Assembly (NCBI GenBank): GCA_963730285.1
Contig: CAVSQY010000010.1
Span: 2,721 to 66,720, forward strand
Direction of reading: 5' to 3'
Source: an uncultured Actinomycetes bacterium
GTDB taxonomy: Bacteria; Actinomycetota; Acidimicrobiia; Spongiisociales; ZC4RG35
DNA length: 64,000 bases
Each line of letters starts with the position of its first letter. Position 1 is the first letter of the stretch. Position numbers and translations under genes: made by a program. The notes beneath the pieces are model-generated. The model was not told where the DNA came from, searched no databases, and was given only the letters and a program-made list of their open reading frames with translations. Below, piece after piece: positions 10,754 to 63,924 of this stretch.

Positions 10754-11944
10754 ATGGAACAAGACACCACAACCACCGAGACGTCGGAGTCCCGGGCGGT
10801 CGTCGAGGAGTTGGTCCGGCCCAGACAGGGCCGGATGCTCGGCGGAGTCGCTCAGGGCCTGGCCAATCGTTACAACCTGCCGGTGCTGCTGATGAGGGCG
10901 CTGTTCGTGATCCTCACCTTTGGTGGCGGACTCGGTCTCGCTCTCTATGCTGCCGGCTGGTTTTTGATCAGATCCGAAGACGAGCTTGAGACACCCGCCG
11001 CGAGGTTCTTCTCCCAAGCATCGACATCCCGGTCCTGGATAGGCATTGGCCTGGTATTCCTCGCCATCCTGATCCTTCTGGACAACTTCACCTTCCTTTC
11101 CGGGGGCGTCGTCTGGGCCGTGGGATTGCTGGTGGTCGGGATACTTCTCTACACCGGCGATCTCCCTCGTCTGGTGCGGGGCACCAACGACAAGGAGGGA
11201 GTTCAACAAATGACAACATCGACCACGGTGGTGCCGACCGGGACATCCTCTGTCGACGCCGGTGACGGATCGGCCTCCGGCCCCCCTCCCACCCCGTCGC
11301 CGACCCCACCCATACTCCCCCCCTCGGCCCGTGAGCCGCGCCCCAGGTCCTATCTGGGCCGAATCACGATCGGCGTCATGCTGATCGGCCTTGGGCTCCT
11401 CGCCGTCCTGGACAACATCCCCGACGTCGCCATCGCGGCCGAGCCCAGGCACTACATGGCCCTGGCGGTGACCATCCTCGGCGTCGGCCTCATGGTCGGT
11501 GGTTTCGTCGGACGGGCGCGCTGGCTGATCCTGGTCGCTGTGGTCCTCGTCCCGACAATGCTGTTCTCCCCTGTGTTCGAGTACAACTGGAACAGCCAGG
11601 ATTTTGACCAGACGGTCACACCAGCCACCTTCGCCGAGTTGGACGACGTGTACCAGATCGACGTCGGAAGTCTCTCCATCGATCTCACCCAGCTGCCCTG
11701 GGATGGTCAGGATGTCGACCTCGTCGCGCGAGTCGACGCCGGTGAGATCGACATCTGGGTCCCTGAGGACGTCGCCGTCGTCGGCAGCGCCCAAGCCGAC
11801 GTCGGCCACGTCGGCGGCTTTGGCCGGGAGTCATCCGGCCTGGGGAGCCCCAATCTGGCGTTCGACCACGCGGGCGCCGATGGAACCGTCCATCTGGATG
11901 CTTCGGTCGATGTGGGCGACATCCAGATCCACGTGGGTAGCTGA
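10754..11944 (+). CDS. PspC-domain membrane protein with LiaF-like C-terminal region
   Basis: PspC motif RMLGGVAQGLANRYNLPVLLMRALFVILT, multiple TM helices, a Pro/Ser/Thr linker and a C-terminal beta region. It is divergent from the PspC kinase. ATG 10754 is preferred over TTG 10718. Confidence 0.75.
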   Translation: MEQDTTTTETSESRAVVEELVRPRQGRMLGGVAQGLANRYNLPVLLMRALFVILTFGGGLGLALYAAGWFLIRSEDELETPAARFFSQASTSRSWIGIGLVFLAILILLDNFTFLSGGVVWAVGLLVVGILLYTGDLPRLVRGTNDKEGVQQMTTSTTVVPTGTSSVDAGDGSASGPPPTPSPTPPILPPSAREPRPRSYLGRITIGVMLIGLGLLAVLDNIPDVAIAAEPRHYMALAVTILGVGLMVGGFVGRARWLILVAVVLVPTMLFSPVFEYNWNSQDFDQTVTPATFAELDDVYQIDVGSLSIDLTQLPWDGQDVDLVARVDAGEIDIWVPEDVAVVGSAQADVGHVGGFGRESSGLGSPNLAFDHAGADGTVHLDASVDVGDIQIHVGS

Positions 11945-49369: not shown

Positions 49370-49395
49370 CGGACTGCTGAAGATCGAAAACAATG

Positions 49396-49430
49396 GGAGG
49401 GTGGTCGATCGGCCACCCTCCTTCTCTTTT
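49396..49430 (+). terminator. Intrinsic terminator/attenuating hairpin after the binding-protein gene
   Basis: GGAGGGTGG-N8-CCACCCTCC (9-bp perfect stem) is followed by TTCTCTTTT. Confidence 0.6.
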
Positions 49431-54365: not shown

Positions 54366-54392
54366 AACCCTCCCCTCGGAGGGTTTTTTGTT
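54366..54392 (+). terminator. ilvB attenuator terminator
   Basis: AACCCUCC-CCUC-GGAGGGUU (8-bp stem) is followed by UUUUGUU. It ends 7 nt before the ilvB ATG. It is preceded by an 11-bp hairpin at 54337-54364. Confidence 0.7.
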
Positions 54393-61090: not shown

Positions 61091-63127
61091 CTACCGGCCT
61101 CGCCCAATGCCCAGGGCTCCCAGCAGATCCTCGAATTGATCGAAACGGAGTGACTGCGGCCCGTCACTGAGAGCATTATCCGGGTCGGGATGGATCTCCA
61201 CCATGATCCCGTGTGCGCCGATGGCCTGCGCTGCCAACGCCAGGGGTGCGACCAGATCGCGATTGCCGGCAGCATGAGAGGGGTCGACGATCACCGGCAG
61301 GTGGCTGCGCTGCCTCAACACCGGGACGGCACTCAGATCGAGCGTGTTCCGGGTCGAGGTCTCGAAAGTGCGGATCCCGCGCTCACAGAGGAAGACCTGC
61401 TGGTTGCCTTCGGACAATATGTATTCGGCAGCCTGGAGTAGCTCGTCGAGCGACGAGCTCATCCCCCGCTTGAGCATCACCGGCCGATGCGCCCGACCCA
61501 CCGCAGAAAGAAGCGAGAAGTTCTGCATGTTTCGGGTGCCGATCTGGAGAATGTCAGCAGTCCTCGCCACCTGCTCCACATCCTCCGGCGAGACGACCTC
61601 GGTCACGACAGGCAAGCCATAGGCCTTCCCGGCCTCAACCAGCATCTCCAGACCTTCATAGCCCAGACCCTGGAACGAGTAAGGCGAGGTCCTGGGCTTG
61701 AAGCATCCGCCTCGGAGGATCGACCCACCGGCCCGTTTGACGATCTTGGCCGTAGCCATCACCTGGTCCCACGACTCGACCGCACAAGGTCCGGCGATCA
61801 TCACCAGCTCGTCCCCACCGATCTTCACTCCGGAGATTTCAATCACGGTGTTTTGAGACTTGTGACCTCTGCTCCCCAGCTTGTAGCCCTTCGGCTTGTC
61901 CAAGGGCGTGTCGAGCTGGGTAAGAGCAGCGCGTCCCTCGGGGTCGACGTTCCCGACACCTCGCTCCACAGGCTTGGGCCTCAAATCCCGGGAGGGGTAA
62001 CTGCCCAGCACCCGGAGGAAGCGAACCTGTCTGGTCAGCTCCTCGAGAACGGCCTGCACCTCCGGATCGGATGCGTTGCCGTCGAAGTCGAGATAGAAGA
62101 GCTCCTCCCGAGGATTGTGCGGGATCGGCCGTGACTCGAGCATCACGAGGTTGATGTCCGCCTCGTGGAAAACGGCAAGCGCATCCATGAGGGCGCCCGG
62201 GTGGTTCCCAACAGCCATCACGATCGAGGTCTTGGAGGCAACCCCGTCCGGGACTTGGGCAGGCTCTCGGGCCACCACCACGAACCGGGTGTAGTTCTCA
62301 TCGCGGTTGGCGACGGCCGATTGCAGAATATCGAGACCGAACAGCCGCGCTGCTTGCTCACTGGCGATGGCGGCAACGGAGGGGTCGTTGAGCTCCTTGA
62401 TCCGCTTGCCCGAGAGCGCGGTGTCGGAGAAGTAGACCACCTCCACATTGTCGAGCCGAGCCAGGAACTCCGAGCACTGAGCCACCGCCTGGGGATGACC
62501 GTAGATCCGCTTCAGACCGGCCACGGTGGCGCCCTCCAAGCCGAGAAGGCAATGTCTCACACGGAACCTGACGTCCCCGACGAAATGGAGCTGACTGTTC
62601 AGGAGAAGGTCGTAGACCTCTGAGATCGCACCGGATGTCGTGTTCTCGATGGGGAGAACAGCCACCCCGGCCTCGCCCTTCTGCACCTCTTCGATGGCGT
62701 CACTGAACGTCGACGAGCGGATGTAGGTGACCGGTATCCCCTTGGAGTCGAAGAACTGTTGCGAGGCGAGTTGGCTGTATGAGCCTTCGATGCCTTGTAT
62801 GGCGACCGTGATGGGACCCCCGGCATTCTCCGAGCGACCCAACAACTCCTGTTGGATCCTGACCGAGTCGTTGACGATCTCCCGCCACACACGATTGACC
62901 AGTCCGGCATCGAGATCGTGGTCCATGCCGGCGGCGATGCGATCGGCGATCAAGTCCTCTTCTCGCAGCTGATCGCGTGAGGGGCGATCCTGGGCGTCCT
63001 TCTCCTTGGCGATGCGAAGGCTGTGTGCCTTGCGCTCCGCCATCAGCTTCAAGATCTCGTTGTCGATCCGATCGATGTCGTCTCTTATTCGGTTGATGTC
63101 GTTCGAGTTCAATTCATTGTTGGTCAT
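61091..63127 (-). CDS. Trifunctional fusion: chorismate mutase (AroQ) - prephenate dehydratase - ACT - DAHP synthase (type I-beta)
   Basis: aa 8-96 are CM-like ([23 protein letters not shown]). aa 106-285 are PDT ([22 protein letters not shown]). aa 298-378 are ACT (MLESRPI). aa 426-678 are DAHPS I-beta ([24 protein letters not shown]). This is one uninterrupted 678-codon frame. Confidence 0.85.
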
Positions 63128-63193
63128 GGGTATGCCTCGGCGCGTCTAAGTGGGCAGGGAGGGAAGAACAGCGGGGGTGGGGGTGGATCGGCG

Positions 63194-63268
63194 CTACGCG
63201 CCGAAATAGACGAACCCGAAGAAGCGCCCGGAACCGGCAGCGACGCTCGAGGATGGGTTCGTGGCCAT
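63194..63268 (-). CDS. Phe/Tyr-rich leader peptide (24 aa) upstream of the CM-PDT-DAHPS gene
   Basis: MATNPSSSVAAGSGRFFGFVYFGA has 4 Phe and 1 Tyr in the last 9 codons. The ATG lies 9 nt after the -10 hexamer. It is below the ORF-track size cut-off. Confidence 0.6.
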   Translation of the reverse strand: MATNPSSSVAAGSGRFFGFVYFGA

Positions 63269-63277
63269 GCGGGACAG

Positions 63278-63306
63278 ATTATCCGCATGTGCGACTTCCG
63301 TGTCAA
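63278..63306 (-). promoter_or_regulatory. Sigma-70-type promoter of the Phe leader / fusion gene
   Basis: The minus strand reads TTGACA - 17 nt - GATAAT. Confidence 0.6.
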
Positions 63307-63333
63307 CCCGGGGCCTCCAGTAGCTTCTGGAGG

Positions 63334-63519
63334 ATGAGCCGTCTCAACTATGCCGTGGGGATCCTTCTGCTGTTGGCAGGCGCCATCTGGGTGCTGCAGG
63401 GTTTCAACGTGGCGTTTGCCCCGGAGAGCTTCATGACGGACGACCCGATGTGGATCATCTGGGGAGCGGTTGCGATCCTGGTCGGCTGTGGCCTGATCTG
63501 GCGTGCCCGCATTCGTTGA
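63334..63519 (+). CDS. Small two-TM membrane protein
   Basis: MSRLNYAVGILLLLAGAIWVLQGF...WIIWGAVAILVGCGLIW. An internal ATG of ORF 63253-63519 is chosen. Confidence 0.5.
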   Translation: MSRLNYAVGILLLLAGAIWVLQGFNVAFAPESFMTDDPMWIIWGAVAILVGCGLIWRARIR

Positions 63520-63564
63520 GCCAGCGGCCATGGCTCAACCGCAATACAATCGACTGGAATCGAC

Positions 63565-63924
63565 ATGAGCGATCTACCGAGCATTCCCGAGAAGGCTCTG
63601 GCCCCCGAAGAGCTACAACGCTTCATGTACGCCTGCTCTCACGAGCGCCGCTCCCCCACCACACAGCGTCTCATCGACGCTTCTTCATATGGCTGGGTGC
63701 ATTTCTTCATACGAAGTCATGGCGAAGACGCCACCGAGACTTCCCGCCCGGATGATTGGCTGGAGCCCCACGACGCAAACCCCGCCAAGCTCTCCGACTT
63801 CTTTGGAAGGGTTGCAATCCGACTGCGGGACACCGGCGCTCACGACTACGCGAAAATCGTTGGAGCAGTACTTCGAGCAACTCGCCGAAGAGCGGCAGCC
63901 CTGGCTGTATCGCTGATCCGCTGA
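63565..63924 (+). CDS. Hypothetical protein
   Basis: 119-aa ORF with coding-like composition. I recognise no family. Confidence 0.4.
   Translation: MSDLPSIPEKALAPEELQRFMYACSHERRSPTTQRLIDASSYGWVHFFIRSHGEDATETSRPDDWLEPHDANPAKLSDFFGRVAIRLRDTGAHDYAKIVGAVLRATRRRAAALAVSLIR

Follow-up and report, generated by a model that had tools for sequence, protein, structure and literature searches.

A terminator-less Phe/Tyr leader with a conserved stop-codon hairpin and C-tract as a putative attenuator of a three-enzyme aromatic biosynthesis gene in Acidimicrobiia

We analyzed a 64-kb stretch of DNA from an uncultured member of the Acidimicrobiia (contig CAVSQY010000010.1, assembly GCA_963730285.1; the whole stretch of 64,000 nt is hereafter called the window), focusing on the region upstream of a minus-strand gene that fuses chorismate mutase, prephenate dehydratase, an ACT domain and a DAHP synthase (CM-PDT-DAHPS). 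This gene is preceded by a short open reading frame (sORF) ending in a cluster of phenylalanine (Phe, F) and tyrosine (Tyr, Y) codons, by a hairpin spanning the sORF stop codon and by a C-rich tract. Judging from its sequence and that of its relatives, the sORF very probably acts as a sensor, a leaderless 24-codon leader peptide whose translation reads the supply of charged tRNA-Phe and tRNA-Tyr. This step is well supported, because strong comparative evidence meets the established biology of pheL and of Corynebacterium glutamicum aroR. The output is the tentative part of the mechanism, and equally tentative is the complete model that we put forward, a ribosome-mediated attenuator of the CM-PDT-DAHPS gene in which Rho would end transcription unless a stalled ribosome shields the transcript.

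The promoter upstream of the sORF matches the consensus at 11 of 12 positions and is the sole such match in 800 nt, where 0.2 are expected (coordinates of all features are given in Table 1). The sORF ATG follows 9 nt past the −10 hexamer, or 7 nt in an alternative register of that hexamer. Since this gap has no room for a Shine-Dalgarno (SD) sequence, we infer from a promoter geometry kept in relatives that the leader mRNA is leaderless or nearly so. Five Phe/Tyr codons fall within codons 16–22, a clustering with a probability of ~8e-6 per position at the 5.4% share of Phe plus Tyr in the long ORFs of the window. A first-pass annotation of the same DNA had described the promoter, its spacer, the ATG, the ORF and three segments with pairing potential, namely A (the last leader codons), B (next to the stop codon) and C (containing the SD of the enzyme gene); on rereading, all of these coordinates proved correct to the base. 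A search of the window for other leaderless sORFs found none, and an Rfam cmscan of positions 62800–63700 on both strands (E ≤ 10) returned 0 matches.

For comparison, the fusion protein was searched against one genome per species, which yielded 80 loci (designated by L-numbers below), mostly from metagenome-assembled genomes (MAGs) of Acidimicrobiia. The 55 Acidimicrobiia-type loci with at least 150 nt of upstream DNA, whose enzymes range from 92% down to 58% identity, constitute the leader set to which conservation values refer unless stated otherwise. In every one of these loci an ORF of 20–27 codons ends 57–86 nt before the enzyme start, TTGAC is separated by ~17–19 nt from a −10-like hexamer, which lies 6–10 nt ahead of the ATG; a purine-rich SD before the sORF ATG was found in none. 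The ATG is invariant and indels are multiples of three. Conservation rises along the peptide, with a majority fraction of 0.59 for the variable N-terminal two thirds, 0.79 for the aromatic part and 0.94 for the last four codons. The C-terminus consists of variants of ...RFFGFVYFGA (for example FGFAYFYFGA, FGFTYFFYFGA, FYFRGYFGA and FFRGYFGV) and always ends in ...(Y/F)FG(A/V)-stop. Relatives carry 3–7 F/Y codons in the aromatic cluster, with exchanges between F and Y and with inserted YF or F codons; lineage-specific insertions (YF, FYF) add aromatic codons exactly in the stop-proximal zone. The last Phe codon lies exactly two codons before the stop, without exception. The first-pass annotation had read the sORF as a leader peptide of the leaderless type, rich in Phe and Tyr and placed before a gene of the Phe pathway, and had named its conservation as the point to be checked: promoter geometry, ATG, reading frame and aromatic C-terminus, and hence the Phe/Tyr-rich ORF itself, are kept in 55 of 55 aligned loci.

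Next to the aromatic codons, segments A and B form a local hairpin across the stop codon, as the first-pass annotation had pointed out. This hairpin comprises 7 bp in the window, and RNAalifold identified it as the sole consensus helix (6–7 bp) of the leader set. Scored as seven pairs, A:B is paired in 98.7% of cells across the 55 sequences, and 0 of 500 shuffles reach this score. Compensatory changes are found at two of the pairs, a C-G to U-A exchange in L041 and L079 at one and a C-G to U-A exchange in L046 at the other. The wobbles, four U·G and one G·U, are strand-specific and therefore favor a sense-strand RNA stem over a DNA palindrome. The hairpin alone folds with −12.2 kcal/mol in the window (z = −2.8), and over the window together with four divergent relatives its energy ranges from −10.4 to −12.2 kcal/mol, whereas the fold of the whole window leader is no better than shuffles (z = −0.05), so that the local hairpin alone stands out. 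The U and C of the last Phe codon belong to the stem. The GGC codon is invariant, and the last codon accepts any base (C, G, U or A) at its third position; UAG serves as stop in 50 of the 55 leaders, and UGA ends 25 of 33 long ORFs in the window. Taken at the codon level, this pattern at the leader end fits a constraint on the RNA, and the predicted RNA stem accounts for the conserved G-A-stop. A −1 frameshift signal was also considered at this site and rejected upon direct reading of the sequence, as a slippery heptamer is not present before the hairpin.

The second conserved element, the C-tract, directly follows the hairpin. Across the leaders it reads CACCCCACCCCCGC, with variation mainly between C and U, and positions C96, C98 and G97 are invariant or nearly so. 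Past the tract, the spacer varies in sequence but is pyrimidine-rich in every leader. The bias extends through the whole spacer, as the region from the hairpin to the SD contains on average 52% C and 13% G, compared with 31% and 30% in the enzyme gene. We scored the C-over-G skew, (C−G)/L, on all 45-mers of the window on both strands. The 45 nt after the hairpin reach 0.44 and thus the top 0.03% (35/127,912), and the spacer lies within the top 1% in all 49 related loci scored. In the same number of loci, the 78 nt past the stop have a median C/G ratio of 2.47 and a minimum of 1.75. RNAalifold predicts no structure in the spacer of the 55 leaders. The C-rich, G-poor stretch that the first-pass annotation had noticed between B and C is hence a conserved trait, and it has, on composition alone, what is expected of a Rho utilization (rut) site placed right after the stall site of an upstream ORF (uORF), being C-rich, G-poor and unstructured. 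The sole region of the window with more strongly skewed 45-mers is a proline-rich coding stretch (..GSASGPPPTPSPTPPILPPSAREPRP..) at 11265–11345 on the plus strand. Two further readings of the tract were rejected: a template-strand G-quadruplex, as the C-runs are lost in relatives having CCUCACCUCC, and a second helix between CGCGU(U) at the end of the C-tract and (A)ACGCG before the SD, as the two sides vary independently.

Hairpin and C-tract were used together, without the sORF, as the query of a metagenome scan. It recovered 75 stretches, about 50 of which carry the same type of F/Y peptide, and the fusion gene follows in every copy with enough downstream sequence. These copies also share the spacing from promoter to ATG, the variable N-terminus with its indels in multiples of three, and the F/Y-rich ending of the leader set. 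Beyond this leader, the scan gave ~10 distinct chance matches without sORF context and no regulon sharing hairpin and C-tract.

The first-pass annotation had seen no canonical terminator downstream of the leader, and this observation holds beyond the window. No intrinsic terminator was found between leader ORF and gene in the window, and among the 55 leaders a lax search gave four terminator-like matches, none of which combines a stem with an unbroken U run. In three of them, a short stem runs into the Phe codons themselves, and in the fourth (L079) the A:B hairpin carries an interrupted UUCUCUCU tail. Behind the hairpin come C's, and the 8 nt following it contain a mean of 1.3 U. Intrinsic termination, U-poor variants included, was therefore rejected. 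A terminator script run on the 64-kb window returned six sites, two of them weak, compared with 1.5 in shuffles; clear canonical hairpins with U-tract are confined to 49395–49422 (both strands), 54366–54385 (+) and 5098–5080 (−). Intrinsic terminators are thus present but rare in the genome from which the window derives.

A different arrangement was found outside the Acidimicrobiia. In a Phycisphaeraceae MAG (L071:2804–3000, plus strand), the DNA before a fusion-gene homologue carries a promoter of the leaderless type (TTGACT-17-AATGAT), an sORF MLLWNAFITDRRFFFGYFTAGGRSAMV that contains RRFFFGYF, and a terminator with a 9-bp stem AACGCCGGC...GCCGGCGTT and seven T's; the leader fold has z = −3.0. 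By these features, another phylum controls the same gene by classical Phe attenuation, and the Acidimicrobiia version has the predicted stop-codon hairpin and the C-tract in place of the terminator module. A terminator-type leader of another kind was observed within the lineage, in the Acidimicrobiaceae MAG L048 (7021–6850, minus strand). There, a promoter TTGACG-16-TACCAT precedes a leaderless poly-Cys sORF MTGHPTRNVCICACACAAARGR, which is followed by GCCCGaggCGGGC-UUUUU and by a gene resembling pyridoxal-phosphate-dependent cysteine synthases; the arrangement suggests a terminator-type leader that senses Cys.

In E. coli, pheL-pheA is controlled by classical ribosome-mediated transcription attenuation, with Phe codons clustered just before the leader stop. 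The Acidimicrobiia element resembles this system in that its Phe codons are clustered before the stop, its target encodes chorismate mutase-prephenate dehydratase, and a hairpin, analogous to 1:2, straddles the end of the leader ORF. Of the features characteristic of trpL/pheL attenuators, the clustered end-product codons are present, but mutually exclusive 2:3 and 3:4 hairpins and an intrinsic terminator are absent, and no Rfam leader is matched. Unlike the SD-led pheL, the mRNA appears to be leaderless, Tyr codons are mixed in, and the target is also fused to DAHP synthase. The leader of C. glutamicum aroR-aroF (Neshat et al. 2014) contains Phe-Tyr-Phe and precedes a DAHP synthase gene, with ribosome stalling upon Phe limitation (summarized in PMC11802643). 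Here, too, an actinobacterial leader places Phe/Tyr codons before a DAHP synthase gene. The two differ, as far as a comparison by description goes, in bacterial class and target architecture, and aroR is described as transcription attenuation, whereas our element combines a stop-codon hairpin and C-tract with no terminator. Functionally, the element is an analog of pheL and aroR; structurally, it does without alternative hairpins and an intrinsic terminator. For the Phe or Tyr genes of Actinobacteria, a comparative survey of 2005 found no RNA element (PMC1262725), and no description of this element was found in the literature searched.

How might such a leader act? In the mechanism that we propose, transcription would start at or within ~3 nt of the AUG, and a 70S ribosome would translate the sORF, stalling on the aromatic codons at its end when Phe or Tyr is scarce. 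With a good supply of both, the ribosome would reach the UAG and leave, the 7-bp hairpin would close, and the C-tract with the ~45-nt spacer would lie naked, so that Rho could load on the spacer and end transcription before or early in the enzyme gene. Under starvation, a ribosome halted on Y21 or F22, 2–3 codons from the stop, would hold the 5′ arm of the hairpin in its mRNA channel and abut the start of the C-tract, denying Rho its loading site and letting RNA polymerase read through. The hairpin may in addition pause RNA polymerase until a ribosome has loaded on the 5′ end, in the manner of a 1:2 pause hairpin.

We favor shielding from Rho because the sole features kept throughout are a hairpin that a ribosome on the last two aromatic codons would have to melt and a rut-like stretch 3–4 nt beyond it, because the last Phe codon is fixed two codons from the stop and is part of the stem, and because lineage-specific insertions place aromatic codons in the stop-proximal zone. 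The lack of a terminator at this leader counts in the same direction, given that canonical ones occur in this genome and after the poly-Cys leader of L048. There is also precedent: at tnaC, speFL and cruR, a ribosome at the end of a uORF has been proven to shield the adjacent rut from Rho (PMC12360218), and Rho has already been proposed to act at terminator-less actinobacterial leaders (PMC1262725; bioRxiv 10.1101/2022.06.01.494293; PMC8079986). The tnaC-tnaAB leader is similar in layout, with a short uORF and, right behind it, a C-rich, rut-like stretch of ~60 nt that leads up to the structural gene. In these systems, however, the ribosome stalls at the stop codon because of a small molecule that binds along with the nascent peptide, and catabolic or transport genes are controlled, whereas the stall proposed here would lie on hungry Phe/Tyr codons, 2–3 codons short of the stop, and would activate a biosynthetic gene. 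We do not expect the nascent peptide to be arrested at the stop codon by a ligand, as biosynthetic logic calls for stalling on hungry codons. All things considered, Rho-dependent attenuation, which the first-pass annotation had suggested as an alternative, is probably the reading that best fits the conserved features. A wider generalization, namely that hungry-codon stalling melts a stop-codon hairpin and blocks Rho from the C-tract in a class-wide, terminator-less biosynthetic attenuator, is conceivable and slightly more doubtful than the model for this gene.

Several points weigh against Rho shielding. No rho gene was found in the window or the related loci with an E. coli Rho sequence as query. 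A ribosome at F22 covers the RNA to about the first bases of B and leaves 40–50 nt of C-rich RNA free; with such incomplete cover, shielding would depend on steric exclusion, or on Rho strictly requiring the proximal C-tract. Ribosomes stalled at F16–F19 would leave the hairpin closed and stop short of the C-tract. In the model the hairpin has no indispensable role, and the conservation of the C-tract at the sequence level exceeds what a generic rut needs.

Table 1 Features of the leader region and of the regulated gene in the window
Feature	Position	Strand	Remarks
−35 hexamer TTGACA	63301..63306	-	Read from sequence; TTGAC at the same distance from the sORF ATG in 55/55 relatives
−10 hexamer GATAAT	63278..63283	-	17-nt spacer from −35; alternative register TAATCT 63281-63276
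Leader ORF, 24 codons + TAG, MATNPSSSVAAGSGRFFGFVYFGA	63194..63268	-	ATG 63268-63266, TAG 63196-63194
Aromatic cluster F16 F17 (G) F19 (V) Y21 F22	63203..63223	-	Presumed hungry-codon stall sites
Segment A, UUUCGGCGCG	63206-63197	-	
Stop-codon hairpin UCGGCGC-GUA-GCGCCGA	63188..63204	-	7 bp; U and A of UAG in the loop
Segment B, GCGCCG	63194-63189	-	
Conserved C-tract CCACCCCCACCCCCGC	63171..63186	-	Majority fraction 0.92 in the 55-leader set
C-rich, G-poor unstructured spacer, candidate rut site	63145..63187	-	58% C, 11% G in the window
ACGCGCC motif + SD GAGG (segment C)	63135..63145	-	ACGCG..CC columns 0.81 conserved
Segment C, CGCGCCGAGG	63144-63135	-	GAGG 7 nt before enzyme ATG 63127
Chorismate mutase - prephenate dehydratase - ACT - DAHP synthase (type I-beta) fusion	61091..63127	-	678 aa

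A second explanation, translational attenuation, seems to us an unlikely general answer, although it survives better than the remaining ones. Here, part of the sORF would pair with the SD of the enzyme gene, and stalled or queued ribosomes would free it; Rho polarity could follow. Its model is Ms5788A of M. smegmatis, where the Cys codons of a leaderless polycysteine sORF pair with the SD region, a pairing proven by compensatory mutants (bioRxiv 10.1101/834739). Our element shares with Ms5788A a leaderless sORF as first cistron, regulatory codons near its 3′ end, the lack of an intrinsic terminator and an actinobacterial host, and promoter geometry, on its own, places the sORF at or near the transcription start in the window and in 55 of 55 relatives. 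As the SD partner one may consider segment A, the Arg/Phe-Gly codons CGGCGC-UUCUUCGGG or N-terminal codons.

Pairing of A with C was central to the first-pass annotation, which had proposed a three-segment A/B/C switch in which the 3′ end of the sORF hides the SD. The complementarity of A to CGCGCCGAGG over 10 positions does exist in the window, where the predicted ensemble comprises A:C at 0.25 and A:B at 0.75, the values most favorable to A:C among close relatives, and the ACGCG..CC just 5′ of the SD, conserved at 0.81, is otherwise unexplained. The comparative data do not support this pairing, however. A:C is paired in 78% of cells, which 444 of 500 shuffles equal, its outer pairs fail in about half of the sequences, and no excess of covariation is detectable. 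Partition-function folds of full leaders give a mean probability of 0.95 for A:B and of 0.03 for A:C. A:B should also win kinetically, because B adjoins A and is transcribed ~45 nt before C; we infer that A:B is kinetically favored over A:C and that no state has A free and B occupied. The clade L029/31/32/35 lacks the ACGCG motif and yet keeps hairpin and C-tract. With A:B as the only helix that RNAalifold finds, the switch as originally drawn was abandoned.

A stalled ribosome does not open the ribosome-binding site (RBS) in these predictions either. Mean RBS accessibility is 0.50 for the naked leader and 0.52, 0.49 and 0.49 when a ribosome is masked in at F16, F22 and the stop codon, respectively, and masking the whole sORF lifts it to 0.58 only. 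The folding with a stalled ribosome that the first-pass annotation had suggested thus speaks against its own switch, since masking A leaves accessibility at 0.50 vs 0.49. In the window and most relatives, the predicted SD accessibility is hence independent of the sORF, and the conserved hairpin lies away from the SD, both unlike Ms5788A.

The picture differs in some clades. An 11-bp perfect duplex CGCCUCGGCGC:GCGCCGAGGCG can form in L008–L012, L015, L017, L054 and L080 between codons 12–15 (Thr-Pro-Arg-Arg), just before the Phe run, and the SD region. Codons 7–11 match the pre-SD region over 13 bp in L048 and over nearly 13 bp in L049, and L003 and L019 share the duplex GGGUUCGUCU:AGGCGAACCC. 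In 12 of the 55 leaders the sORF:RBS duplex beats 95% of shuffles (p ≤ 0.05), and cognate sORF-RBS pairs exceed non-cognate ones in stability by an average of 1.8 kcal/mol (p ~0.005–0.013, uncorrected for phylogeny). Masking the F16 stall site opens the RBS in the duplex clades, for example from 0.19 to 0.43 and from 0.35 to 0.63. For the window, by contrast, the duplex has p = 0.37 against shuffles and a rank of 0.25–0.31 among non-cognate partners. SD sequestration by regulatory codons is accordingly predicted for L008–L017, L003/L019 and L048–52 only, and not for the window. The same verdict was reached for other sORF:RBS duplexes and for a nested A0:C helix, in which the Arg codons CGGCGC pair with GCGCCG: they are real in some clades, but they do not hold generally and lack significance in the window. 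Translational attenuation also leaves the hairpin and the C-tract, the two best-conserved elements, without a role. Clade-specific translational attenuation, with codons 12–15 or 7–11 pairing with the SD region, may nevertheless exist. Rho shielding and SD sequestration are compatible, with some clades probably using both.

It is improbable, in our view, that the hairpin and C-tract are bound by a trans-acting factor, such as a Phe/Tyr-sensing RNA-binding protein or a small RNA, with the leader peptide in an accessory role or as a separate input. The C-tract is conserved at 0.92, beyond compositional need, and at a fixed distance from the hairpin, and it has no partner in cis because the spacer is G-poor, all of which would suit such a factor. 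There is, however, no candidate for it, and the metagenome scan with hairpin and C-tract gave no second copy of the motif. The C to U and U to C transitions are as expected of a pyrimidine-content signal, and the fixed placement of the aromatic codons relative to the hairpin points to the ribosome as effector.

Least of all do we expect a non-regulatory origin of these patterns, be it a small hydrophobic peptide with its own function, which the conserved C-terminus ...RFFGFVYFGA might suggest, or elements serving a divergent promoter or DNA operator in the intergenic region shared with a divergently oriented membrane protein gene whose synteny extends to many relatives: the peptide varies freely over its N-terminal two thirds, the invariant GGC and the free third base of the last codon follow the pattern of an RNA stem and loop and not of a peptide, the wobbles favor RNA over a DNA palindrome, and F/Y codons before a Phe-pathway gene recur in another phylum together with a classical terminator. 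The divergent gene itself, 63334–63519 (+), is preceded by an SD GGAGG and encodes a 61-aa hydrophobic (membrane) protein (MSRLNYAVGILLLLAGAIWVLQGF...) with no Pfam or NCBIfam match. Homologues are present in 37 of 54 related loci, in 35 of them within ~65–240 nt of the leader ATG. At least 13 loci retain the leader without an adjoining divergent gene, and the element therefore belongs to the enzyme gene; together with the strand-specific wobbles, this led us to reject a DNA operator or divergent-promoter element. The remaining probability goes to mechanisms outside those considered here.

Textbook attenuation by leader peptides is defined by a switch between terminator and antiterminator, which many leader peptides of actinobacteria lack. 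The mode of action of terminator-less actinobacterial leader peptides has been a puzzle since the 2005 survey (PMC1262725). The present element offers a clean case for its study, with more than 100 natural variants, one stop-codon hairpin, one C-tract and invariant spacing from the last sensing codon. Should Rho shielding hold true, it would constitute the first defined expression platform for such leaders, and rut shielding of the tna type would turn out to be used for the control of amino-acid starvation. Regulation is now also annotated for a widespread three-enzyme fusion in an abundant uncultured soil lineage.

The fusion protein comprises the Pfam domains CM_2, PDT, ACT and DAHP_synth_1 and matches the NCBIfam models PRK08673 (Bacillus-type DAHP synthase) and PRK10622-like (P-protein). 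Full-length homologues occur in MAGs of Acidimicrobiia, Ignavibacteria, Planctomycetota, Vicinamibacteria and Thermoanaerobaculia. In the Vicinamibacteria (L070, L072, L074, L075 and L076), a leaderless-type sORF is located ~66–140 nt upstream of the fusion-gene homologue and encodes MN(I/V)AKSRGRFVFT(C/S)S(H/Q/W)GAGGG.., a conserved peptide sequence with only two Phe codons. The start of the enzyme gene varies as well: L013, L014, L016, L018, L022, L025–L027, L039, L044 and L058 have no evident SD at the enzyme AUG. In this Acidimicrobiia subgroup, the UGA of a mini-ORF of 2–4 codons overlaps the enzyme AUG in an AUGA junction, the mini-ORF being AUG(N3)AGAUGA in most members and starting with UUG in L026. 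This overlap suggests that the enzyme gene is translated there by termination-reinitiation coupling.

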